Shown here: in pieces, positions 225 through 63,347 of the stretch | Position numbering within the stretch: position 1 is the stretch's first letter | Layout: each line of letters starts with the position of its first letter | Source of the DNA: an uncultured Candidatus Saccharibacteria bacterium | GTDB taxonomy: Bacteria; Patescibacteriota; Minisyncoccia; Phycocordibacterales; Phycocordibacteraceae | Assembly (NCBI GenBank): GCA_964607655.1 | Contig: CAZSKX010000001.1 | Span: 363,010-427,009 of the forward strand | Direction: 5' to 3' | DNA: 64,000 nt | Position numbers and translations under genes: made by a program | The notes under the pieces: model-generated | Told to the model about the DNA's origin: nothing | What the model saw: only the letters and a program-made list of their open reading frames with translations | Database searches by the model: none

Positions 225-839
225 GTGGGATACTGTTTGGACATGCCAGAAATGCCTGCGATGTTGGCTCCCCTCTTCGCGCTTCTCGACAGCTCAAAAT
301 ATGCCTTGATTTTTATCGGCTGCTACGTCGAGGGATCGACCGTGATGATGACCACCGGCCTCCTCTGGCGCGTGGGGACGATGAGCTTCTGGCCAGCGTA
401 TCTCACGCTCGTGGTTGCTGACGTGCTCTCTGACATCATGTGGTATTTCGTCGGCCGCTACGGTGCAGGCCCCTTTGTAAACCGCTGGGGCCACTGGTTC
501 GGCGCGACACCCGAGGTAGTCGCGAAGGTAAAGCAGCGTTTTCACCACTACCACACCAATATCCTTATTATCTCTAAGCTCACGATGGGTTTCGGCTTCG
601 CCGTGCCTGTGCTTGCCGTCGCGGGGATGCTCCAGGTGCCCCTCAAGCGCTTCGTGCTTATCAACACGCTCGGGAGCTTCGTGTGGGTACTCGCCAACAT
701 GGCCGTCGGCTATTACTTTGGCAACTTCGTCGTCGACATCCCGCGCGAGTTCCAGATCGCCCTCCTGATCGCCCTCCCGATACTTTTCTTCATCGCGATC
801 AAACTGCTCTCCAATAAGCTTCAGACTGTGGACTGGTAG
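225..839 (+). CDS. DedA/SNARE-associated (TVP38) family inner-membrane protein
   Basis: 204-aa ORF with several hydrophobic helices and a DedA-like glycine-rich core (FVGRYGAGPF); it ends 1 nt before the next gene. Confidence 0.5.
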   Translation: MGYCLDMPEMPAMLAPLFALLDSSKYALIFIGCYVEGSTVMMTTGLLWRVGTMSFWPAYLTLVVADVLSDIMWYFVGRYGAGPFVNRWGHWFGATPEVVAKVKQRFHHYHTNILIISKLTMGFGFAVPVLAVAGMLQVPLKRFVLINTLGSFVWVLANMAVGYYFGNFVVDIPREFQIALLIALPILFFIAIKLLSNKLQTVDW

Positions 840-840
840 T

Positions 841-1560
841 ATGCTGCTCTCGATCGTTATCCCCACACGCGAAGAAGAAAAGGCGATCGCACAAACGATT
901 GCGCAGTTTAAAGACGCGCTCACGATCCCCCACGAGATCATCGTCTCAGACGCGCGCAGCAAAGATCGTACCGTCGCGATCGCGCGCGAGACCGCCCACG
1001 TGGTGGTCGTGTTCGACGGCACCAAGCACACGGCCGGGATCGGCCGCAACGACGGCGCCAAAGTCTCCCGTGGCGAGTTTGTTGCCTTTGTTGATGCGGG
1101 AGTCGAGATTCCCGACCCTGCAGCCTTTTTCGATAGGGCACTCGCCAACTTTAGCGACCCAAAGGTGGTGGCCGTGTGCTGCGCTCAGTGGGCCTTCCCT
1201 ACCATCGAGACCTGGGCTGATCGACTGTCTCTAGGATATCTCAACTTCGTGGTTCGCCTGCAGAACAACTTTCTGCATAAAGGCGAGGCAAACGGCAAGT
1301 TCATGCTGGTCCGGCGAAGTGCCTTTGACGCCATAGGCGGCTTCCGCGAAGACCTACATACGCGCGAAGATGGCGACTTCTTCTACCGTCTTTCTCGTAT
1401 GGGCCACACCGTCTACGACCCGTCCCTCGCGATCTACCACGCCGCGCGACGTGCCCACGAGATCGGGTGGACACGACTATGGTACATTTGGACTGTGAAC
1501 TCGATCTACTTTGCTCTTACCAACAAATCTCCAGTTGAAGACTGGACCCCTATCCGCTAA
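841..1560 (+). CDS. Family 2 glycosyltransferase
   Basis: N-terminal LSIVIPTREE motif, a DxD-like FVDAG and an ED motif (GT-A fold hallmarks); 239 aa. Confidence 0.65.
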   Translation: MLLSIVIPTREEEKAIAQTIAQFKDALTIPHEIIVSDARSKDRTVAIARETAHVVVVFDGTKHTAGIGRNDGAKVSRGEFVAFVDAGVEIPDPAAFFDRALANFSDPKVVAVCCAQWAFPTIETWADRLSLGYLNFVVRLQNNFLHKGEANGKFMLVRRSAFDAIGGFREDLHTREDGDFFYRLSRMGHTVYDPSLAIYHAARRAHEIGWTRLWYIWTVNSIYFALTNKSPVEDWTPIR

Positions 1561-11831: not shown

Positions 11832-12129
11832 ATGGGGCGGGCAGATCTCCCTCGCAGGTGAGCAGTCCCCATGGCCCGGGCGTCTCACAGTTGAAAGTTC
11901 TCAGAGCAATATTGATGATCCCGAACGCGCCGAAGATTATCGTTAATCCGATCAATCCCCATAGCATGGAATCTTTACCAACCTTGCGCTTGGCCGGGTC
12001 TCCGGCACCTGCGATAAACTGAACAATTCCCCAGAGAAAAACCACAAACGCCCCTGCCGTAAGCAGGAGCATAAGCGGATTCACTATCTGAACAACAACG
12101 CGGTCGAGAAAGTTGAGCAGCGCTGACAT
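11830..12129 (-). CDS. TrbC/VirB2-like T4SS pilin-family small membrane protein (paralog 1)
   Basis: Two hydrophobic helices separated by a charged G-AGD-AKRK-GK loop and a C-terminal WGL-N motif shared with its five neighbours. Confidence 0.55.
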   Translation of the reverse strand: MSALLNFLDRVVVQIVNPLMLLLTAGAFVVFLWGIVQFIAGAGDPAKRKVGKDSMLWGLIGLTIIFGAFGIINIALRTFNCETPGPWGLLTCEGDLPAP

Positions 12130-12500
12130 TACCCACCGATCTGGACTCCTGCCGAAGGCGTACCCCCTGAAGGACCAGTGTTGTCACCGAAGTCGAAGGT
12201 GCCGACGAGGATGTTAACAAGACCCCAGATCGAGACCATGACGAAGAAGCCGATCAAGCTGTAAAGCATGAGACTCTTGCCCTTGTCCTTGGCGTCTTCT
12301 GAGCCGGCTCCAAGGATAAAAGTCGTAAAGGCGCCCCAAAGGAAGACGATAAAGGCAACCGCGAAGAGCACCGGAACGATAATATTATTTATCGTATCGA
12401 TGATAAATGTTCCGACATCACTGATGTCATTAAGAGCGGCGAAGGTGACCATCGGAAGGGTCAACGCAGCGAGAGTGCTAAGAGTTACGACTTTTTTCAT
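12129..12500 (-). CDS. TrbC/VirB2-like pilin-family protein (paralog 2)
   Basis: Signal peptide, then IIVPVLFAVAFIVFLWGAF...GAGSEDAKDKGKSLMLYSLIGFFVMVSIWGLVNIL. Confidence 0.6.
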   Translation of the reverse strand: MKKVVTLSTLAALTLPMVTFAALNDISDVGTFIIDTINNIIVPVLFAVAFIVFLWGAFTTFILGAGSEDAKDKGKSLMLYSLIGFFVMVSIWGLVNILVGTFDFGDNTGPSGGTPSAGVQIGG

Positions 12501-12596
12501 ACTTTGTATAAGTGGCTAATGGGTTAATTGTAGCTTGGCGAAACGTAAGGTCAATGCAGTTTGCGCGCCAGTGTGGATAGCTGGCTCGACAGTAGC

Positions 12597-12995
12597 CTAA
12601 AGAATTGGCCGAAGGGTTGGCGTTGGTATACCTGTATTATCTTGCTTATCTAAGTTAAGCGTCTCCTTGACGATAAACACGATGCCCCACACCGAGAGGA
12701 TGATGACGAATCCTATAATCCCATTCATGGCGAACTTCCTCCCCTCCGTGCGCGCCTTTTCATCGGCTGCACCTAAGATGAAGTATTTATAGATACCCCA
12801 GAGAAAGACGATGAGCGCCACCGCCATAAGCATGGGTACTAAATAAATGTTTATGAAGCCAATGAGATCATTGGCATAGTAACCGATGTACGTGAAGTCG
12901 AGACCGTCTGCTGTTCCTGCTGATGCCGCTGCCGCTGCAGGTAGGATGAGGTACCCTATTGCTCCCACTCCCGCTACTTTTGCTGATGTTGTCAT
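12597..12995 (-). CDS. TrbC/VirB2-like pilin-family protein (paralog 3)
   Basis: Same two-helix core (LVPMLMAVALIVFLWG...GAADEKARTEGRK...SVWGIVFIV). Confidence 0.55.
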   Translation of the reverse strand: MTTSAKVAGVGAIGYLILPAAAAASAGTADGLDFTYIGYYANDLIGFINIYLVPMLMAVALIVFLWGIYKYFILGAADEKARTEGRKFAMNGIIGFVIILSVWGIVFIVKETLNLDKQDNTGIPTPTLRPIL

Positions 12996-13005
12996 AAGAA
13001 GTGAA

Positions 13006-13467
13006 TTAATAAGTGTAAGAGGTTGGTAACGTTTGCAGAGTCGCGTTCTGCAGACCGAAGGTGTTCGCTACGATGTTTACGAGTCCCCAGAGCGAGATCA
13101 TGATGACGAAGCCAATAATCCCCCACAAGATAAGGCGATGACCCTTCCTGACCTCCCCCTCGTCCCCGAGGGAAAAGATATACGTCTTCGCGACACCATA
13201 CAAGAAGGTAATAAACGCCACCGCAAAGAGCAATGGGACAAGGATCGAGTTGATAAGGTAGAGAAGCGTAACGCCAATACGGCAAATCGTAAGCTGGCAA
13301 GAGGCTTGACCGCCCCCACCGCCCCCACCCTCGCCTCCAGCAACACAGAGGCCGTCTGCTCCTCCAATACACAGCCCCGCCCACCAGTCAGCAGCCAGGG
13401 TCCTCGTTGGTAGCAGTATCGCAACGCTCATGATGCTAAGCACGAGAATGAGAAGCGCAGTCCTCAT
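13006..13467 (-). CDS. TrbC/VirB2-like pilin-family protein (paralog 4) with Gly/Cys-rich insert
   Basis: Signal peptide MRTALLILVL..., then GLCIGGADGLCVAGGEGGGGGGGQASC, then the conserved pilin core. The start was chosen to avoid overlap with paralog 5. Confidence 0.5.
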   Translation of the reverse strand: MRTALLILVLSIMSVAILLPTRTLAADWWAGLCIGGADGLCVAGGEGGGGGGGQASCQLTICRIGVTLLYLINSILVPLLFAVAFITFLYGVAKTYIFSLGDEGEVRKGHRLILWGIIGFVIMISLWGLVNIVANTFGLQNATLQTLPTSYTY

Positions 13468-40299: not shown

Positions 40300-41529
40300 C
40301 TATTCTCGCGAGAGTTTGTAGACGACGCCTGCGGCGTCGTCGCTGATGTAGGCCACCCCGCCCGGGAAGGTCTTGATGTCGACCGGGCGGCCGAGCTTGG
40401 TCCCCTCCGCGGTCAGCCAGCCAGTGATGAAGTCGTGCGTACCCTGGTAACGGCCCTGCGCGTCGAGCGCGACGCGCACGATCTTGTACCCTACCGGCAC
40501 ACTGCGATTCCACGAGCCGTGGAGCGCGACTAAGGCGTCATACCAGTATTCCTCGGGCCAGCCCTCTTCGGGGACAATGGCGAGGCCGAGCGGCGCCGAG
40601 TGAGCCTGTAGGTCGACAAACGAAGGCGCTTCAAAGGGCTCCATGCAGGGGTTACGGATGTACGTATTTTTATCAAACTCAGTGTCGTGGATATTTTTCC
40701 CATAGCAGACCGGCCAGCCATAGTTCTTACCCTTCTCGATAATGTTTAGCTCATCGGGCGGTGTGTCGTCGCCGAGCCCGTCGCGGCCCATCTCGGTCGC
40801 GAAGACGCGCCCGTCGACGGGGCTCATCTCCATAAACACCGAATTACGCAGCCCCTTCGCATACTCCATCAGTGTGCCTGTCTTGGTGTCGTAGGCCATG
40901 ATCCGCCCGCGCTGCGAGTCGCTCTCGTTGCATACGTTACATGACGAGCCGACCGAGACGAGCAAAATGTTTTCTTGAGGCGAGGGCAAGAAGAGGAGCG
41001 TGCGAGAGGTGTGACGATCGGTCCTGCTCGCCTCGAGGTCGGCGAGCTTGGTGTAGCCGCTCACTGTCCCTGCCTCAGGGTCATAGGTGTAGCGCCCGAG
41101 GCGGCTATGCTCGGCGAGGTAGAGGTAACACGGGAGGCCACGATCATCCTGCGGACAATCGAACGCGAGGCCGTGCGGGTTATCGAGCCCTTCAGCGAGC
41201 GTCGAGCGCTCCTCGGCCGCTCCGTCGCCGTCTCGGTCACGGAGCGTCGTCACCTTACCCTCTTTCATCTGGCTCACGAGCATCCGCCCGGCTGGGTCGA
41301 GCGCGAGGACGCGAGCGCTCGTTACCCCGCTCGCATAGACGGAGATTTTAAAGCCTTTAGGTACGGTGAGTCGTGGCGTGATCGTGTCTTCGGGCGCACT
41401 CTCTACTCCGCCATCCATCCACGGTATCGCCACCGCGCCAATATACTTCTCCTTAACCACCCATAGCGCAGCCACGATCAGCACCAGCACACCGGCAGTA
41501 ATGAGGAGTTTTTTAGTCATGTTCTTCAT
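40300..41529 (-). CDS. PQQ-dependent soluble sugar (glucose/sorbosone) dehydrogenase-like beta-propeller
   Basis: Signal peptide and GxxxG/NYGWP-like propeller blades (KGKNYGWPVCYG). Start set at MKNMTKK because the longer ORF runs into the low-GC island. Confidence 0.6.
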   Translation of the reverse strand: MKNMTKKLLITAGVLVLIVAALWVVKEKYIGAVAIPWMDGGVESAPEDTITPRLTVPKGFKISVYASGVTSARVLALDPAGRMLVSQMKEGKVTTLRDRDGDGAAEERSTLAEGLDNPHGLAFDCPQDDRGLPCYLYLAEHSRLGRYTYDPEAGTVSGYTKLADLEASRTDRHTSRTLLFLPSPQENILLVSVGSSCNVCNESDSQRGRIMAYDTKTGTLMEYAKGLRNSVFMEMSPVDGRVFATEMGRDGLGDDTPPDELNIIEKGKNYGWPVCYGKNIHDTEFDKNTYIRNPCMEPFEAPSFVDLQAHSAPLGLAIVPEEGWPEEYWYDALVALHGSWNRSVPVGYKIVRVALDAQGRYQGTHDFITGWLTAEGTKLGRPVDIKTFPGGVAYISDDAAGVVYKLSRE

Positions 41530-41688
41530 GCTCTGATTGTACTCTATTGTCTTTGAAACGCGCTTCTTTTTCTGTTCTGCGATATAATTACAGAGCAATT
41601 CTATGATTTCTCTCAAATCATCAACTGTAATTTTTTCAAAAGTATTGCTACTTTCAGAACTTTGTTGCTTAATGTCATTGACAACGCA

Positions 41689-41738
41689 ATTCGGTGATGC
41701 GAAAATGCCCTCAACGGGCATTTTCGCATCACCGAATG
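41689..41738. repeat. Perfect 22-bp inverted repeat (attcggtgatgcgaaaatgccc / gggcattttcgcatcaccgaat) with a 6-nt loop
   Basis: Read directly from the sequence; lies in AT-rich DNA at the left edge of the low-GC island and overlaps a TTGACA-17-GAAAAT promoter-like element. Confidence 0.8.
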
Positions 41739-41858
41739 CGATTTCCCCACCTCATTGATTTTTCATAAAAACTCCTATATAATCAACTTTAAGAAGTAAG
41801 ACCTCTCGTGTTGGGGTACCGAATGGCGCCCCGTCAAAACGAGGGGCTTTCTTATTTT

Positions 41859-42488
41859 TTAGGCAAAAAGTGGCTTCTCATCGACAATCTTATCCTTGAT
41901 CAGCTCGTAGTATTGGTAGTCGTTGTGCTCGTATTTCCTGAAAATTGCCCACGAAATAAAGTCGACCGCTTGAAGTGACTTGTTCTCGTGCGAAGCGTGT
42001 AACTCTACTTTGAATACACCGTCTCGGCGATTACTCATTTCTGTACATAAATACGTTACAAAATTTTCCTTCAGCCGCTTCTTGGTGTCCTTCCGGTCGA
42101 TGTAGAGTTCGATCGATTCCTGTACACTCAACGCATCACTCTTATGGAGCCGGTCTAAGAGGATGTTCGCGGTGTAATTATAGAGCACGTTCTTTTGACT
42201 CTGTAGATTCGTATAGACCTTTTCCTTGTTCAAGACAATCGTTTGCACCTTGAGATCCGGGATCTCACTCAACTTCTGTAATAATCTCTTGCGTGTTATC
42301 TCGTCAGCCCCGTACGCATGCAGCTCCCCCAAGCGCTTATGCTTCTTCTTTAGCGTGCGCCAGACCTTCTTGACAGCCCGCTCAAGCGCACGCTCGTCGG
42401 CGACGATAGCAATGGTAAAGAGAAACCATTTGCTCGATCCTTTCTTAAACCCCAAATCCCCGCTCTCATCAAGAAAGACGTAGGCCAT
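41859..42488 (-). CDS. DUF3800-family protein
   Basis: N-terminal MAYVFLDESGD, the hallmark of DUF3800; the ATG overlaps the upstream stop (TAAtATG). Confidence 0.6.
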   Translation of the reverse strand: MAYVFLDESGDLGFKKGSSKWFLFTIAIVADERALERAVKKVWRTLKKKHKRLGELHAYGADEITRKRLLQKLSEIPDLKVQTIVLNKEKVYTNLQSQKNVLYNYTANILLDRLHKSDALSVQESIELYIDRKDTKKRLKENFVTYLCTEMSNRRDGVFKVELHASHENKSLQAVDFISWAIFRKYEHNDYQYYELIKDKIVDEKPLFA

Positions 42489-42489
42489 A

Positions 42490-43653
42490 TTACCGATTCC
42501 CCTTCGCTCGGTTGTGTGTTTTGCAGAGCATTTGACAGTTTGCCGCATCGGTCGCTCCCCCCTTACTCCAAGCAGCCACGTGATCGGCATCCATATCGGA
42601 CAAACTCCAGATCTTCTCCTTGTTGGCGTCATGCCCAATGGCGCACAAGGGACAATTTGATTCACTTTTTTCTTTCGCCGCTGCGGTCTGAGCCTCATAA
42701 ACTGAGCGTTTAGTCGCATCGTCAAACACGCGCACGTCCAACAACTTCGTGTCCACTTCGCCTCCTAATACATACTCGAAGATCCCTCGTCGGTTCTTGA
42801 CGTGCGCGTCTCCATAAAGACGCTGCACCGCGGCAGAAATTACCGCGGGATCGTAAGTTTGCGCATGGTACGTCTTGTACAAACGATTCCATTCCAGCCC
42901 CTTCATTTCGCTTTCGACATCAATGAAAATTGACGACACCCAATCAATGACTTTGTTGAAGTGATTTTTCAACTCAGTGATATCCGAATCCTGACGGTGC
43001 TTACTCATGTAGTTATCGATTGCCCCATCAGACACCCAGTCAAGCGCATGCTCCAGAAAAGCTTGGCGCTTGATATCACCAGAGACGTAGGCACTCCACT
43101 TCTGCACATTCGCATTTTGGCTATTACTAAACTCCTCACGCGCACGAGTCACAAAAGGCCCGGAGTAGACCGCGTTCAAAATCTCCTGCTCGGTTAGCGG
43201 CACACCCGCAATGTTGATCGTCTTGAACCAATCCTTGATCTCTGGCTCTTCGCCCTCGCATATGTAGATGAGCAACTTCGTATTCAAGATCTTCTCGCGC
43301 TGCACATCGGCCATCCCGCTATAGTATTGTTCGTGACCATTCTGGTCCCTTACCGCAAACAAACCGGTCACAAATCGACCAATACTAGTGATACGCTGCT
43401 GACCGTCGAGGACTTCAAACTTTTCGTTGCCCACCTGATTGAAATACATCACTCCGATTGGATAACCTTTCACAATGGAGTCGATTACTGCCACGTCACG
43501 CCTTCCGTCCGCGTATATGTAATTACGTTGGTACTCAGGCTGGATAGTAAGCGTACCTGATAGACCAAACAGACCCTTGCCTTCAAATGCATTGTATTCA
43601 AAACCGGCGACAACGTCGCGAATGGTGATGTCAGTTTTTAGTGCAGTTTTCAT
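42490..43653 (-). CDS. ParB-like/DUF262 nuclease-domain protein with C-terminal HNH endonuclease domain (GmrSD-like architecture)
   Basis: VLDGQQR (DUF262 signature) N-terminally; CPLC...DADHV...N...CKTHN (HNH) C-terminally; translationally coupled to both neighbours. Confidence 0.7.
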
Positions 43654-43654
43654 A

Positions 43655-44809
43655 TTATTTCTTCTTGTGCTTTATAAAAATTCTCTTGAAGGCCATTTTT
43701 GCAATGCCATTGTCGTAATAGCCTGCAGTTGGGTTGCCTTCCTTATACGCCCCCGTTCCACCTGCTTTATAGTAATCATCGACGAACTTCTTTGTTAGCC
43801 CTGGTGTCCGTTTGAACTCATCACCAACAAGTCCGTTATCGTTTGTGCCCAGGATCTCAAACTGTTCCGGTGAATACTTGTCTAGGAAGCTAATCGGCAC
43901 ACCCATTGCCCCATCGTAATCACTCGGTATGGCATCTGTAAATGGCACCTCGATTGCGTCGTAATTGTCATATTTATCGTAATCGGCCTTGTCTTTCATC
44001 TTTTTGTTAAATCTAAAATTGTCAGAATATGTCATAAGACTAAGCGGTCGGTGACGGCGACCATGATCAAGATTGGTAAACCAGCATGTGTTACCCATTT
44101 TCTGTTCGGACTTATCTGGTCTCACATATGTTTTTGCACCACTCACAACCCCCAACCACACCTTGTTCATCTTTATCAAAGGAAAAATTTCTTTATAAGT
44201 TATGGCATTCATGCTGCCAAGTATCAGAAATTGTTTGTTGTGCTCCATGAGCTGGGCCACATAAGGCCGAAACAGGCTAAATGGAGGATTGGTGACTACA
44301 ATGTCGGACTCTTTAAGCAGCTCGACGCATTCAGGACTTCGAAAGTCGCCATCGCCCTCTAGCGGCGACCACTCGTTATTTTTATTTTCCTTCAATTGCT
44401 GCGAAATATCTTTCAGCGTGAAGGAGCCATCCCCGTCCACATCGCCAACTTCGTTAATGATAAATTTGTTGGCCGTAATCTTCGGTCGGCCTTTGACAGG
44501 CTCGAGTGTCACATCGTCGCCAAATAGCCCGAGCTGAGTATTCGCAACAGGCGAGGGCTTGTAGCTCGTGGTAATAAGCCGCTTTAGACCGAGGCGTTTG
44601 AAATTAAGCACGAAGTAGCGGAAGAAGTTACTCTCGAACGGATCGTCGCAATTGCAGTAGACAATCTTATCCTTAAAAGTGTCGCGGTCGTACTCCAGAT
44701 AGGCCTCAATCTCTTTTTGAATATCGCTGTACTGCGTATAGAACTCGTCATTCTTTGCCTTTTTGGCATTTGTGAGATTGCTGTTCGCCATTACGCCAAA
44801 TAATCCCAC
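43655..44809 (-). CDS. EcoRI-family N6-adenine DNA methyltransferase
   Basis: N-terminal NDEFYTQ...VYCNCDDPF and the catalytic TNPPF (motif IV of m6A MTases); GTG start (an ATG alternative is at 44791). Confidence 0.65.
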
Positions 44810-44841
44810 ATTTTCTTCATTTTTGGAATGCGCGCAGAGGG

Positions 44842-45687
44842 GTGGCGGGCGCGAGCTATACTAGAGCCATGTCTACGCGCTCTAAGATCGGTATCGGCTT
44901 ATTAGCAGCACTCCTCCTCGCCCTCGGCGGCTACTACGCGCTCTACGAGACCGAGCTCGAGGAGACGGCGCTCGAGGGTCTCTATGGTAGCGAGGAGTGT
45001 ACCGTGGCGGGGATCAACGCCCACGGCGACTTCGTCACGTATGCCTCTGCGTACGACTCGGTAGCTGAAGCGGCGCTTAACGAAGCGCCGTCTGAAGAGA
45101 TCATCGGCGCGATAAACGCCGCCGAGAGGGACGAGAGCATCAAAGGTATCCTGCTCGATATCGACTCGTACGGCGGGATGCCGGTGGCCGGAGAAGAAGT
45201 GGCTAATGCGCTACGCGCGACTAAGAAGCCGACCGTCGCGCTTATCCGCGGCGCGGGCGCCTCGGCCGCGTACTGGGCGGCGAGCGGCGCCGACCACATC
45301 GTCGCCTCTGCCCTCTCAGACGTCGGCAGTATCGGCGCCACCTACTCGTACACCGACGCCGCGAAGTACAACCAGGAGCAGGGCTACACCTTCAACCAGC
45401 TCTCGACGGGTATCTATAAAGATGCGGGTAACCCCGATAAGCCGCTGACCGCTACCGAGCGCGCGCTCGTGATGCGCGATCTCGAGATTATTAAAAATAA
45501 GTTTGTCGCTACTGTCGCCGCTAATCGCGACCTGAGCATCGCCGCAGTCGAGGCGCTCGCCGACGGCTCCACGATGCTCGGCGAGGCCGCGCTTAAGGCG
45601 GGGCTCGTCGACGAGATCGGCAGCTACGAGGAGGCGAAGGCCTACCTCGCGCGCGAGACGGCCGCTCCCGCCGAAGTGTGTTGGTAA
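44842..45687 (+). CDS. sppA: Signal peptide peptidase SppA (S49, 36K type)
   Basis: N-terminal TM, catalytic Ser region GAGASAAYW and Lys region downstream. Confidence 0.75.
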   Translation: MAGASYTRAMSTRSKIGIGLLAALLLALGGYYALYETELEETALEGLYGSEECTVAGINAHGDFVTYASAYDSVAEAALNEAPSEEIIGAINAAERDESIKGILLDIDSYGGMPVAGEEVANALRATKKPTVALIRGAGASAAYWAASGADHIVASALSDVGSIGATYSYTDAAKYNQEQGYTFNQLSTGIYKDAGNPDKPLTATERALVMRDLEIIKNKFVATVAANRDLSIAAVEALADGSTMLGEAALKAGLVDEIGSYEEAKAYLARETAAPAEVCW

Positions 45688-45697
45688 TGGCCGCGCG

Positions 45698-46012
45698 CTA
45701 CTGCGCCGGATACCACTTGTAGGCCGGCTGCGCGAAGGCTGAGTTCTCTGCCTGCTTGTCTACGACAAACTCCTCGCCGCGTGCCTTCTTATCTGCGTCG
45801 CTCGAGTTCACTTCGAGACGCTTCTCCCAGTAGTCGCCGTTTGACGCTTGGATCTCGAGCTCCTCGGCGACCGTGTGGTGCGACGGCGCCCATATCCACT
45901 CCACACCATCGCTGTCGACACGCTTCTCGCCCGGTACGGGCGGCGTTGGATCCATCAGATCGCGCAAAGGACCTCGCTCTCCCGGCGCTGATGCTTCTAT
46001 TCCTTCATGCAT
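45698..46012 (-). CDS. Hypothetical protein
   Basis: 104-aa ORF with no motif. Confidence 0.3.
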   Translation of the reverse strand: MHEGIEASAPGERGPLRDLMDPTPPVPGEKRVDSDGVEWIWAPSHHTVAEELEIQASNGDYWEKRLEVNSSDADKKARGEEFVVDKQAENSAFAQPAYKWYPAQ

Positions 46013-59843: not shown

Positions 59844-61577
59844 ATGACTCGACGATTCTTCGCCCCCCTGCTCGTGCTGACCTTTCTCTTCTCGCCATTT
59901 ATTGCACCACTCGAGGCGAGTGCTGCGGTATCAAACTGGCAGCGCAGTGTAAGTTTTTATCCTTTCTCTCCTACCGACTTCGAAAGCGAAGATTATAGAA
60001 AAAGCGTCGACCACTTTAAATCGCTTGGATTTAACTATGTGACGCTGATCATCCCGTATTCACAGGCGAACGCCTGGTCGTCAGATGTGTTCCCTGGTGG
60101 CAATGCGCCCACTGACGCTGCGCTCATAAGCGGTATCCAATACGCGCACAGTCAGGGCATGGGCGTAGTGCTCAAGCCACATCTCGACCCGCGCGACGGC
60201 GCGTGGCGCGCGCATATCCGCGCTAGCGACCGTGATGCCTGGTTTGCCAACTATCAGAACATGCTCACAAAGTATGCGACGATCGCGCGCGACCATAACG
60301 TCGAAGTGATCTGCATCGGCACCGAGCTGATCGCCATGGCCTCGAGCTGGGAGAACGGCGACAACACCACCCGCTGGCAAGGGATGATCGGTGCGGTGCG
60401 CAGCATCTACAGCGGCAAGCTTTTCTACGACGCGAACTGGGGTGGCGGCTCCTTCGAGAACGAGCCGCCACAGATCGGCTTCTGGGGTGACTTGGACTAC
60501 ATCGGAATCTCAGCGTATTACACCTTCTCTGGCGATGGTTCGGTGGCATCGCTTAAGAGTCAGTGGGACCAGATCAACAACAACACTATTCGCCCGCTTG
60601 CAGAGCAATACGGCAAGCCGATCCTCTTCGCCGAAGTCGGTTACCGCAGCTCTACGAACGCGTACCAGCAACCCTGGGACCCTTGGTATCCGGGCTCGTA
60701 TTCTGCCCAAGAGCAGATAAACGACTACATCGCGCTCGTCGAATATTGGAATGACTACTCGTACATGCAGGGTATCGGACTCTGGTATGCCGTGGTCGAC
60801 CCCAACGCGGGTGGCTCAGGTAACACAGACTACTTAATACAAAACAAACCGGTTGAGGCAACTTTCAAACAACTCTTTGGCGGCGGAACGACTCCCCCGC
60901 CGCCCCCTCCTGCGCCCATGAGTGGCTCCTATCGCACCGACGGATCAGTGAACCCCTCATCGGTGAACGCCGGCCAGCCCGTCGAACTCACCGCGTCGAT
61001 CACCAACACCGAGAGTGCGATGGGTGGTGCCAACATTGATCTCGAGGTGTATGACAGCGCGGGCAATCGCGTCCACCAGCAGATATTCGAGGGCCAGAGC
61101 TTCGCCGACGGCGAGTCGCGTGACTTCACCACCAGCTTCACACCGAGCACCGATGGCACCTACACCTTCAAGATCGGCGTGTTCTCTACGAACTGGGGCA
61201 CGCTCTACGTCTGGAATGACGAAGCTGCCAAGGTGCAGATAGGCGGCGGCACACCACCACCCCCGCCTCCACCACCGAGCGGCGATGTCTCAGTATGGTG
61301 GCCGACGGGCGGAGCGAATGTCTCGGGAGTCCAGCCCTTCAAAGCTCGCATCGACGATCGCGACCTCTCGAGCTACCAGATGTTCTGGCAGGTCGACGGC
61401 GATCGCCTGAACGATATGTACGACTCTGATCAAGATGCGCCGCACAAAGAAGCAATGGTCGATCTCTCCGGCTGGAGCTGGCGCGAAAACGGCCCGTACA
61501 CGATCACTTTTGTGGCTAAGGACTCGAACGGCACGACCATCGGACAGAAGTCAGTACAGATCACGGTCACTCACTAA
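59844..61577 (+). CDS. Secreted glycoside-hydrolase (clan GH-A, GH5/GH26/GH113-like) with Pro-rich linkers and two C-terminal beta-sandwich domains
   Basis: Signal peptide; catalytic-acid context ICIGTE and nucleophile context LFAEVGY; two PPPPPP linkers. Confidence 0.5.
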   Translation: MTRRFFAPLLVLTFLFSPFIAPLEASAAVSNWQRSVSFYPFSPTDFESEDYRKSVDHFKSLGFNYVTLIIPYSQANAWSSDVFPGGNAPTDAALISGIQYAHSQGMGVVLKPHLDPRDGAWRAHIRASDRDAWFANYQNMLTKYATIARDHNVEVICIGTELIAMASSWENGDNTTRWQGMIGAVRSIYSGKLFYDANWGGGSFENEPPQIGFWGDLDYIGISAYYTFSGDGSVASLKSQWDQINNNTIRPLAEQYGKPILFAEVGYRSSTNAYQQPWDPWYPGSYSAQEQINDYIALVEYWNDYSYMQGIGLWYAVVDPNAGGSGNTDYLIQNKPVEATFKQLFGGGTTPPPPPPAPMSGSYRTDGSVNPSSVNAGQPVELTASITNTESAMGGANIDLEVYDSAGNRVHQQIFEGQSFADGESRDFTTSFTPSTDGTYTFKIGVFSTNWGTLYVWNDEAAKVQIGGGTPPPPPPPPSGDVSVWWPTGGANVSGVQPFKARIDDRDLSSYQMFWQVDGDRLNDMYDSDQDAPHKEAMVDLSGWSWRENGPYTITFVAKDSNGTTIGQKSVQITVTH

Positions 61578-61599
61578 GGTATGCGGTGGCTAGCCAGGT

Positions 61600-62355
61600 C
61601 TATTTATTTAAGAATTTCGCGAGGGTGTATCCCCCATCAATAGTCAGGACTTCTCCGCACATGGCCTGATTCTTAATCAGAAACAGTGCCGCATCAGCGA
61701 TTTCTTCTGGCTCGATCATTCGCTTGGTAAGGTGTGCCTTACCCAACTCCGCTTTCTCCTCCTCGTTCTCGATATCCCACATCGAGGTCGCCACTCTGCC
61801 TGGGGCAATCGCATTCACTCGAATCTCTGGCGCGAGCTCCTTGGCCAAGTTCTTGGTGTAGCTGTTCAGGGCCGCTTTAAATGCCGAGTAGGCTATGGCT
61901 TCGGGTCGGCCGTACCCGAGCTGTCCATGCACGGAAGATATATTAAGGATGTTTGCTCCCGTCATGAGCGGCCGAACATATTTAGTCATGAGCACACAAC
62001 TCAAAAAATTGTTTCGGTACGTACTATCAAACGCCTCGAGGTCAGTGAAATGATCTCGTTCGTCGAATATACCCGCGTTGTTCACCAATACATCTACGTG
62101 ATCAAACTCGGCTGAAAACTGTCCAACCATTGTCTTAACTGCTGACTCTTCCGAAACATCTGCCTTAAGTAGGAGATGGCCGACTCCGTACTCCTCGCAC
62201 GCCCGCAACACTTCCTCGGCAGCGGTCGTATCCGACTTGTAATTAATAGCGACCTTATACCCCTCCTTCGCAAGCGCAATCGCAATGGCTCTGCCAATCC
62301 CTTTTGACGCACCAGTTACGAGAGCGACTTTGCTAGCAGTTTTAAATTTGGACAT
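61600..62355 (-). CDS. Short-chain dehydrogenase/reductase (FabG-like)
   Basis: TGASKGIGRAIA Rossmann motif and a YSAFK catalytic Tyr-Lys. Confidence 0.8.
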   Translation of the reverse strand: MSKFKTASKVALVTGASKGIGRAIAIALAKEGYKVAINYKSDTTAAEEVLRACEEYGVGHLLLKADVSEESAVKTMVGQFSAEFDHVDVLVNNAGIFDERDHFTDLEAFDSTYRNNFLSCVLMTKYVRPLMTGANILNISSVHGQLGYGRPEAIAYSAFKAALNSYTKNLAKELAPEIRVNAIAPGRVATSMWDIENEEEKAELGKAHLTKRMIEPEEIADAALFLIKNQAMCGEVLTIDGGYTLAKFLNK

Positions 62356-62902
62356 GATTATTTTCGTTGAGAAAAACCTCTATTTTTTTAAGCGCAACGC
62401 GGCGCATAGAAGTTTCTTTCTGTTCCTCTGGATCCATTTCGCCCCAGGTTTTAAGATGGCCTTTGGGAATAAAGATGGGGTCCCAGCCGAAGCCCTTCTC
62501 GCCTCGCGGTAGTGGTGCAATCGTGCCCTCTGCCTGACCTTCAAACATCTCGAGCGTAGCTCCATCATAAAGACCAAAACAGACTTCGGCCACGCAAGAG
62601 CGATCTTCATACGCATCAAGCAACTCGCAGAGGCCCGCGTTATCAAGTTCGGTTAAGAACCATTTAATCAACGGACCTGGCAACCGGCCAAAAGCAGCGA
62701 AGGTAAGCGAAGTGTCTTCGACCAACACGGGGGCATTTACCTGCTTATACGCTTCTCGTACCTTATGCTCGACGACTTCACGCAAATCAAGCGACTGGAT
62801 TTCGTGGAGATCAAGCTTCTTATGAGCCACAGGATGCTGTAGGTGTCGTCCGAGCTGTTCGGCCTTGGCGGCATTTCCCGTAATGAAAGTTATGTTCTGC
62901 AT
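62342..62902 (-). CDS. Non-canonical purine NTP pyrophosphatase (Ham1/RdgB ITPase)
   Basis: ITFITGNAAKAEQ N-terminal motif and FGWDPIF. Confidence 0.7.
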   Translation of the reverse strand: MQNITFITGNAAKAEQLGRHLQHPVAHKKLDLHEIQSLDLREVVEHKVREAYKQVNAPVLVEDTSLTFAAFGRLPGPLIKWFLTELDNAGLCELLDAYEDRSCVAEVCFGLYDGATLEMFEGQAEGTIAPLPRGEKGFGWDPIFIPKGHLKTWGEMDPEEQKETSMRRVALKKIEVFLNENNHVQI

Positions 62903-62906
62903 AGAT

Positions 62907-63242
62907 TTAGAATACCTTGGCTGAGAGAGGAACTTCAGATTCGGGGGCAAGGTAAATAGTCTCACCTTTCTCATTGGCCACGCCAAGCACCAGCACTTCA
63001 GATTTTTCGGGGCCCATCTGCTTAACTCCAAAGTTGAGCACCGCCACGATCTGCTTCCCTAGCAAGTCCTCTTTGGGATAGTTACGATACGCGCCACACG
63101 ACACTTTCGTGCCCACTTCAGGCCCAAAATCGATCGTGAGCCGATACGTAGGTTTCTTTGTCTCCGCGTCTTCCACTTTAACAATCCGACCGATGCGGAT
63201 GTCCAACGCATCAAAATTCTCGAATGAAGTGATGTCTTTCAT
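62907..63242 (-). CDS. tRNA-binding protein (CsaA/Trbp111 OB-fold)
   Basis: LDIRIGRIVKVE...KLLSCGAY-like pattern (VSCGAYRNYPKEDLLGKQIVAV). Confidence 0.6.
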   Translation of the reverse strand: MKDITSFENFDALDIRIGRIVKVEDAETKKPTYRLTIDFGPEVGTKVSCGAYRNYPKEDLLGKQIVAVLNFGVKQMGPEKSEVLVLGVANEKGETIYLAPESEVPLSAKVF

Positions 63243-63347
63243 GGTCTGATTGTAGCAAATTGCCCCATGTTTTCGACTCCGTAACCCCTCATTATCGAAT
63301 GTGATAAGATGCAAACGGATCAAGCAAACCACTCAAAGGAATCATTT

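Follow-up and report, generated by a model that had tools for sequence, protein, structure and literature searches.

Do three tightly packed genes in an island of low G+C content (GC) form one defense system, or are they neighbors by accident? The question is raised by a 64,000-nucleotide (nt) stretch of DNA, the window, from an uncultured Candidatus Saccharibacteria bacterium (contig CAZSKX010000001.1, positions 363,010 to 427,009 of the forward strand). At 41530-44841 of the window, three open reading frames (ORFs) run in the same direction on the minus strand, flanked on one side by a GSDH-like gene and on the other by a divergent gene for an S49 peptidase. They encode a DNA methyltransferase (MTase), a nuclease with a DUF262 and an HNH domain (DUF262-HNH), and a DUF3800 protein. 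An earlier note, made from the sequence, had proposed that the three genes are a single, uncharacterized defense module. We consider it likely that two independent units make up the island: a restriction-modification (RM) pair, consisting of the MTase (M) and nuclease (R) genes, and the DUF3800 gene with an element at its 3' side.

We found that the M and R genes occur together in other genomes, and that the DUF3800 gene does not accompany them. More than 8000 homologues of the nuclease were scored, nearly all of them 387-392 amino acids (aa) long and 55-90% identical; they come from Patescibacteria, Proteobacteria, Actinobacteria, Firmicutes, and Bacteroidota. Nuclease loci were fetched from species-representative genomes (80) and from IMG/VR viral contigs (80), and MTase linkage was counted in those with at least 1.3 kb of upstream sequence (67 genome and 73 viral loci, 140 in total). 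A gene for an EcoRI-family MTase was upstream of the nuclease gene, on the same strand, in 66 of the 67 genome loci and 70 of the 73 viral loci (136/140), and was immediately adjacent in 44 genome and 53 viral loci. The commonest M-R junctions in these relatives were a 4-nt overlap, ATGA (12 loci), and a 1-nt spacer (10 loci). None of the 160 nuclease loci contained a DUF3800 gene (0/80 genome, 0/80 viral); 69 of the genome loci had at least 800 nt of downstream sequence for this check. Conversely, neither the MTase nor DUF262-HNH was found in 40 DUF3800 loci, comprising 28 with the window subfamily and closer relatives (0/28) and 12 viral loci with distant DUF3800 homologues (0/12). The proposal that the three genes form one module did not survive this survey.

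The M gene (43655-44791, minus strand) encodes a 378-aa protein that Pfam and PADLOC searches and the locus survey identify as an EcoRI-family (gamma-class, NPPF) N6-adenine DNA MTase. It matched the whole Pfam EcoRI_methylase profile (2.2e-119, 1-345/345), with the catalytic NPPF motif in place, and the PADLOC MTase_II profile (5.5e-99). A full-length profile match, the NPPF motif, and a separate M gene of the monomeric type are shared with the EcoRI-family Type II MTases (PF13651). The start codon is ATG; an in-frame GTG at 44809 is a less likely start, because homologues align from residue 6-7.

The R gene (42490-43653, minus strand) encodes a 387-aa protein, the length of most of its relatives being 387-389 aa. 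Based on Pfam and PADLOC searches, conservation among homologues, and an AlphaFold2 model, the protein begins with a ParB/Srx-like DUF262 domain (DGQQR), continues with a helical region, and ends in a zinc-ribbon HNH domain (CxxC...DH...N...CxxxC..HN). Pfam matches were to GmrSD_N/DUF262 (1.6e-21) and HNH (PF01844, 1.4e-6). The HNH match at residues 352-387 (PF01844, and weakly HNH_5) was the sole nuclease-domain match, and there was no Pfam match to DUF1524. In 36 nuclease homologues, the DGQQR motif (D83-R87), a QPExQR segment, the HNH residues D357, H358, N372, H380, and N381, and the cysteines C334, C337, C373, and C377 were invariant. Less conserved patches of the protein are at residues 101-120 and 261-280. 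In the model (pLDDT 81.5, pTM 0.56), an alpha/beta domain at the N-terminus is followed by a helical region and, at the C-terminus, by a small beta-beta-alpha unit. A Foldseek search of the PDB with this model gave weak, domain-level matches to BrxU (E 5e-3), ParB/Noc CTPase domains, SspE, an HNH nickase, and McrA. The PADLOC profile PDLC03418, a Type II restriction endonuclease (REase_II) profile, matched the nuclease end to end (3.2e-87, 7-371/372). In contrast to the EcoRI REase, a PD-(D/E)XK enzyme, the REase partner in the window is not of that type.

These searches confirmed the domain assignments of the earlier note for all three proteins, and the motifs that it had listed (DEFYTQ and TNPPF in the MTase, DGQQR in the nuclease, YVFLDESGD in the DUF3800 protein) are present in the translations. 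There were no matches to any of the three proteins in NCBIfam or in a sequence search of the PDB. As judged from sequence, the pair has the traits of a Type II system: adjacent, separate M and R genes, an intact MTase core, and an intact REase motif in a catalogued family.

The closest studied counterpart that we found is BanLI of Bifidobacterium animalis subsp. lactis. Its EcoRI-like MTase, M.BanLI (41.7 kDa), methylates RTC(m6A)GG (m6A, N6-methyladenine), and R.BanLI (43.5 kDa) gives an efficiency of plating (EOP) of ~0.1 for P1vir in E. coli, or approximately ten-fold restriction (PMC3990576). In REBASE, the BanLI REase gene, located beside the EcoRI-like MTase gene, is annotated as a "DUF262 domain-containing protein" and classified as Type II (PMC13091528). 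BanLI and the window pair are alike in the order M then R, in having an EcoRI-like (N12/gamma class) m6A MTase, in protein sizes, in the DUF262 annotation, and in the Type II class. The BanLI genes are also below the GC of their host (50% vs 60%). However, BanLI adjoins an integrase gene and has no reported DUF3800 neighbor, whereas the window island has a DUF3800 gene and no integrase, and the BanLI site RTCAGG is not transferable to the window locus. BanLI is likely a characterized relative of the window pair, a comparison made by size, class, annotation, and gene order. Searches of the literature turned up no named enzyme behind PDLC03418 and pointed to BanLI alone. With a nuclease that fits this profile, and a Type II REase in REBASE that carries the same DUF262 annotation, the view that the MTase/DUF262-HNH pair is uncharacterized is not supported.

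The M-R pair is also found on plasmids and in viruses. On a 9.3-kb plasmid of Moraxella osloensis, the pair is alone as an M-R unit, the other six genes being unannotated. It is also on plasmids of E. faecium, actinobacteria, and lactic acid bacteria, annotated there as overlapping genes. The RefSeq names for the plasmid pairs are "adenine-specific methyltransferase EcoRI family protein" and "DUF262 domain-containing protein". In IMG/VR viral contigs, 167 stretches matched the pair, some of them on contigs of 200-400 kb. This common occurrence indicates that phages and prophages are major carriers. Based on its distribution and profile matches, we regard the M-R pair as an ordinary, catalogued, and extremely widespread RM module that is biochemically little studied.

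The gene following R, or lying between M and R, was different in almost every locus. Genes between or after M and R included those for Bro-N, AntA, T5orf172/MUG113, D12 MTase, DUF2130, DUF2779, DUF2806, and SIR2_2 proteins, and R was followed elsewhere by genes for KAP NTPase, AAA_21, AAA_13, or UvrD proteins and once by that for isoleucyl-tRNA synthetase (ileS). A RhuM-family gene (helix-turn-helix and Virulence_RhuM domains) was between M and R in nine loci, truncated in one of them, and the same gap was occupied elsewhere by Bro-N, AntA, T5orf172/MUG113, or D12 MTase genes. The M-R gap seems to be a favored landing site for small accessory genes.

The third gene of the island (41859-42488, minus strand) encodes a 209-aa DUF3800 protein whose fold is RNase H2-like and whose DE...D...QxxD motifs are intact. 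It matched Pfam DUF3800 (PF12686, 2.5e-18), and the N-terminal DE motif, the C-terminal QxxD motif, and the RNase H-like fold were each found. In PADLOC, it had a weak match to PDC-M04A (1.8e-7), and the MTase and nuclease matched no PDC-M04 model. Its subfamily contains more than 1300 proteins of 209 aa, 66-76% identical and mostly from Patescibacteria. The DUF3800 proteins of retron type VII and of Cas12a2/a3 and Cas13 loci share the RNase H2-like fold with DE and QxxD motifs, but the window protein is solitary, with no reverse transcriptase, Cas, or tetratricopeptide repeat (TPR) partner.

Elsewhere, the neighbors of the DUF3800 gene are unrelated and mostly housekeeping genes; they include YceG and glycosyltransferase genes and, on the upstream side, genes for sigma-70, RadC, peptidyl-tRNA hydrolase, SNase, Imm8, GNAT, and NUDIX proteins. 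The closest relatives (71-76% identity) are also among housekeeping genes. In approximately half of the loci, the DUF3800 ATG either overlaps the preceding gene or follows its stop codon by 1-13 nt. The tight junction in the window is therefore typical of this gene and no sign of partnership with the RM genes. Conservation on the 5' side ends at the ATG. Six loci have in common an A/T-rich leader, AAATAA(A)TTT, just before the ATG. The TAA in this leader may terminate the preceding gene, and the leader is possibly the 5' end of a mobile DUF3800 unit. From its distribution, the DUF3800 gene appears to be a separately distributed hitchhiker outside the RM pair.

We found that the DUF3800 gene is accompanied by a conserved folded element of ~68 nt (41789-41856, minus strand), which begins 2-3 nt past the stop codon. 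RNAalifold and our own assignment of helices gave a long interrupted hairpin, P0-P1-P2, with the loop AUUC, and the single-sequence minimum free energy structure of the window element is the same fold. The element was present after every full-length copy of the DUF3800 subfamily that had downstream sequence, including proteins 47-52% identical (other copies, given by locus and position, include L081 1398-1465, L084 5631-5698, L097 5652-5737, and L109 4480-4547). In an alignment of 19 distinct sequences, 94.5% of cells were paired and 11 of the 19 pairs had compensatory changes. Slid controls gave 1-3 such pairs, and the observed count was reached in 0 of 500 column shuffles. A covariance model matched the window at 41774-41858 on the minus strand (94 bits). 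Across ~1 Mb of fetched loci its matches were exclusively just downstream of DUF3800 coding sequences, with none in the RM loci or in the distant viral DUF3800 loci.

The element resembles a known class of RNAs in its location, and fits none of the Rfam models of that class. Eleven unrelated RNA motifs, DUF3800-I to -XI, have been tied to DUF3800 genes, without a functional hypothesis (Weinberg et al. 2017; PMC5737381). Those motifs and the window element are alike in being conserved, structured, non-coding elements beside a DUF3800 gene. However, the window-type element is always on the coding strand directly past the stop codon and matches none of the Rfam DUF3800 families: there was no match at E<=10 on 41700-41900 and none at E<=1 on 40500-46000. 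In five element-carrying loci searched at the Rfam gathering score, the element was again unmatched, and DUF3800-IX was detected elsewhere in one of them, L109. The library thus contains the DUF3800 RNA families, and the element differs from them. It is probably a further, uncatalogued DUF3800-associated motif. L109, which carries a close relative of the window DUF3800 protein, also has a second short DUF3800-like ORF (469-804, plus strand) with a RhuM/Fic gene near it; the DUF3800-IX RNA (1107-1170, minus strand, 59 bits) is ~300 nt downstream.

Two other properties of the element were seen. At the 19 helix positions, neither G-U pairs nor changes on one side only occur in the 19 sequences; the variation is fully compensatory. 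The missing G-U pairs, unusual for RNA, hint at room for a role as single-stranded DNA (ssDNA) or one involving both strands, although with only 19 sequences they may be a small-sample effect. In addition, by eye, there is a second pairing partner for the 5' strand of P1 in the sequence that follows it (CCCC/GGGG; window 41800-41845, minus strand). This alternative pairing, which is out of register in the alignment, is seen in four other copies too, and divergent copies have it as CUCGU/ACGAG and UAUAC/GUAUA. This suggests two alternative conformations that change in step. We did not adopt the idea that the DUF3800 unit, being a promoterless gene with a 3' hairpin lacking G-U pairs, is an integron attC-like cassette, because the hairpin sequence is highly conserved and there is no integrase or cassette array.

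Could all three genes nonetheless be one three-component defense system, with the DUF3800 protein an obligatory subunit such as a second effector or a regulator of the MTase or nuclease? The two junctions favor this. Both the M-to-R junction (43651-43657) and the R-to-DUF3800 junction (42486-42492), on the minus strand, read TAATATG. The earlier note had described these as overlapping stop and start codons; the genes are indeed tightly packed, but each junction is a TAA stop, a 1-nt spacer, and an ATG, with no overlap. The low GC is shared by all three genes, and DUF3800 is linked to defense elsewhere, in retron type VII, in Cas12a2/a3 and Cas13 CASK loci, and in the PADLOC candidate PDC-M04A. 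On the other hand, the PDC-M04A match is weak, the gene after R changes almost locus by locus, the closest DUF3800 relatives are among housekeeping genes, and the survey found no linkage in either direction (0/160 and 0/40). Taken together, a three-component system is very improbable. A role for the nuclease as a Type IV, modification-dependent enzyme like GmrSD, BrxU, or SspE, with an MTase of separate function (an orphan or anti-restriction methylase, for instance), is just as hard to reconcile with the data. GmrSD, BrxU, and SspE do share with the window nuclease an N-terminal ParB/Srx-like DUF262 domain with DGQQR, a C-terminal nuclease of the His-Me-finger type, and a role in defense; the best structural match, a weak one, was BrxU, and there were partial PADLOC matches to the GmrSD-like models NsnA, PD-T4-2_A, and HEC-05/06. 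But these models cover just the N-terminal domain, and the full-length match goes to the Type II REase profile. Furthermore, the known enzymes carry DUF1524, whereas the C-terminal domain here is a canonical HNH (PF01844), and they are 1.5-2 times longer (BrxU ~580 aa, SspE 560-770 aa, vs 387 aa). They attack or sense modified DNA and are stand-alone or attached to BREX or Ssp systems, whereas the window family is nearly always coupled to its own MTase. The lack of a cognate protective MTase is a Type IV trait, but an MTase was present in 136/140 nuclease loci, often with overlapping stop and start codons, an arrangement that a self-targeting enzyme could not tolerate. The observation in the earlier note that a DUF262 nuclease coupled to an MTase departs from the usual Type IV layout was sound.

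A third alternative keeps M and R together and changes how they would work. The pair could be an RM system of a distinct, nucleoside triphosphate (NTP)-dependent kind, in which R relies on the variable MTase for its target, as the Type III Res relies on Mod, and the ParB-like domain is a nucleotide switch. Several features are consistent with this. M invariably precedes R, to which it is translationally coupled, and the ParB/Srx-like domains of BrxU, SspE, and ParB bind or hydrolyze NTPs. BanLI has a single MTase for an asymmetric site, RTCAGG. In addition, R is the more conserved protein: averaged over alignment columns, identity to the window protein is 0.71 in the nuclease, as against 0.62 in the MTase (loci L001-L080 and L126-L205), and R is constant in length, whereas MTase length varies from 359 to 444 aa among relatives, with a hypervariable 40-residue segment at residues 321-360 (column identity 0.15-0.19). 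However, this alternative is pure inference; the middle of R (~170-330) could read DNA and has less conserved patches too, and PADLOC and REBASE file the family as Type II. We consider it unlikely, although less so than either of the other two alternatives. A requirement for NTPs as such is plausible, given the ParB-like domain.

Several points weigh against our reading of the island as a Type II-like RM pair with an unrelated DUF3800 unit. The characterized DUF262 enzymes (GmrSD, BrxU, and SspE) are modification-dependent or modification-sensing. The proposed direction of the methylation effect comes solely from gene linkage. The stronger conservation and steadier length of the nuclease, compared to its MTase, invert the usual Type II pattern, and one possible sense of this inversion is that R may not read the target sequence on its own. 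Identical TAATATG junctions and 1-nt spacing indicate that the DUF3800 gene is co-expressed with the RM genes in this genome, and a local functional interaction between them could exist here. As to BanLI, the third nuclease homologue search, with a copy from an actinobacterial plasmid (Yimella) as the query, had no Bifidobacterium protein among the matches listed, and restriction by BanLI is weak (EOP ~0.1; PMC3990576).

For the composite of two units, which remains our preferred explanation, we propose the following mechanism. The MTase would recognize a specific short sequence in host DNA and add N6-methyl groups to its adenines. The DUF262-HNH nuclease, made from the same transcript just downstream, would cut DNA without this mark, using its zinc-stabilized HNH site. 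The ParB-like DGQQR domain probably binds or hydrolyzes a nucleotide and might thereby gate or position the nuclease. A nuclease attacking DNA that had been modified by its own coupled MTase would be suicidal; since the linkage is conserved, we infer that methylation protects and that unmethylated DNA is the target. The M-R pair would act as a selfish, highly mobile module across many phyla, plasmids, and phage contigs. The second unit would be the promoterless DUF3800 gene and its ~68-nt element, which is elsewhere located behind unrelated housekeeping genes. It would have landed here directly behind R, and is presumably expressed by read-through.

The composition of the island is consistent with its acquisition from elsewhere. 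GC over 41530-44841 is 46.0%, compared to 57.4% in the left flank, 60.3% in the right flank, and 56.2% in the whole window. This is the lowest-GC 3.3-kb stretch of the 64 kb, ~4.4 standard deviations under the mean. The compositional break reported in the earlier note is real and supports its suggestion of horizontal acquisition, but the drop is to 46% and not to ~42%, a value that fits only short stretches and the tail. Nor does the drop cover exactly three genes: it includes the three co-directional minus-strand genes (45-49% GC) and ~330 nt of non-coding DNA (41530-41858, 36-39% GC by itself). Third-position GC is 53-63% in the three genes, which is higher than their overall GC, and 67-76% in host genes. 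Values between the two would fit partial amelioration. A scan of the island for sigma-70-like promoters and terminators gave nothing above the chance level. A repeat search found no direct or inverted repeats bounding the island or the DUF3800 unit, and no tRNA or integrase gene adjoining the island was found. Two further stretches of the window, 12001-13250 and 61500-63250, have a 1-kb GC of 48-49.6%.

The non-coding tail of the island (41530-41788, 36% GC) contains an inverted repeat with perfect 22-bp arms around a 5-nt loop (41689-41737), found in the repeat search. It is the only copy in the window, is absent from 113 fetched loci, and may be an operon terminator or a relic. Comparison of 41530-41800 with the fetched loci by blastn and tblastx gave no similarity, and hence neither an empty site nor the limits of an insertion could be made out. 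The neighboring ORF at 40300-41721 (minus strand; GSDH/TrAA12-like) reaches into the tail, which gives it a 64-residue N-terminal extension from island DNA. This extension is probably non-coding. The Pfam domains of the ORF begin at residue ~117, and a hydrophobic N-terminus, MKNMTKKLLITAGVLVLIV, begins at the ATG at 41529. The true start is probably this ATG or the one at 41520, just ahead of the hydrophobic segment.

As a lead to a new defense system the locus is weak, because the pair is very common and catalogued and the third gene is an accidental neighbor. The RM family is of interest in its own right. It sets a ParB-like domain, typical of Type IV enzymes, in what appears to be a methylation-protected system, and it is among the most widespread RM modules in Patescibacteria and phage contigs, with BanLI the only experimentally studied candidate member that we found. 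The most interesting remainder is the DUF3800 gene with its uncatalogued 3' element. Strongly covarying and absent from Rfam, the element makes this gene a compact case for the puzzle of why DUF3800 genes are tied to so many unrelated structured RNAs. A more speculative picture, which we offer only tentatively and think rather doubtful as a whole, is that the gene and its covarying hairpin are an autonomous two-part unit, a nuclease with a structured RNA or ssDNA partner, that inserts without a promoter behind the stop codons of unrelated Patescibacteria genes and here uses the RM operon for expression, and, separately, that R may be an NTP-gated nuclease dependent on the MTase for specificity. 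If this is true, the autonomous DUF3800 unit would represent a small mobile or defense/addiction element of a new kind, and its hairpin a twelfth, uncatalogued DUF3800-associated motif.

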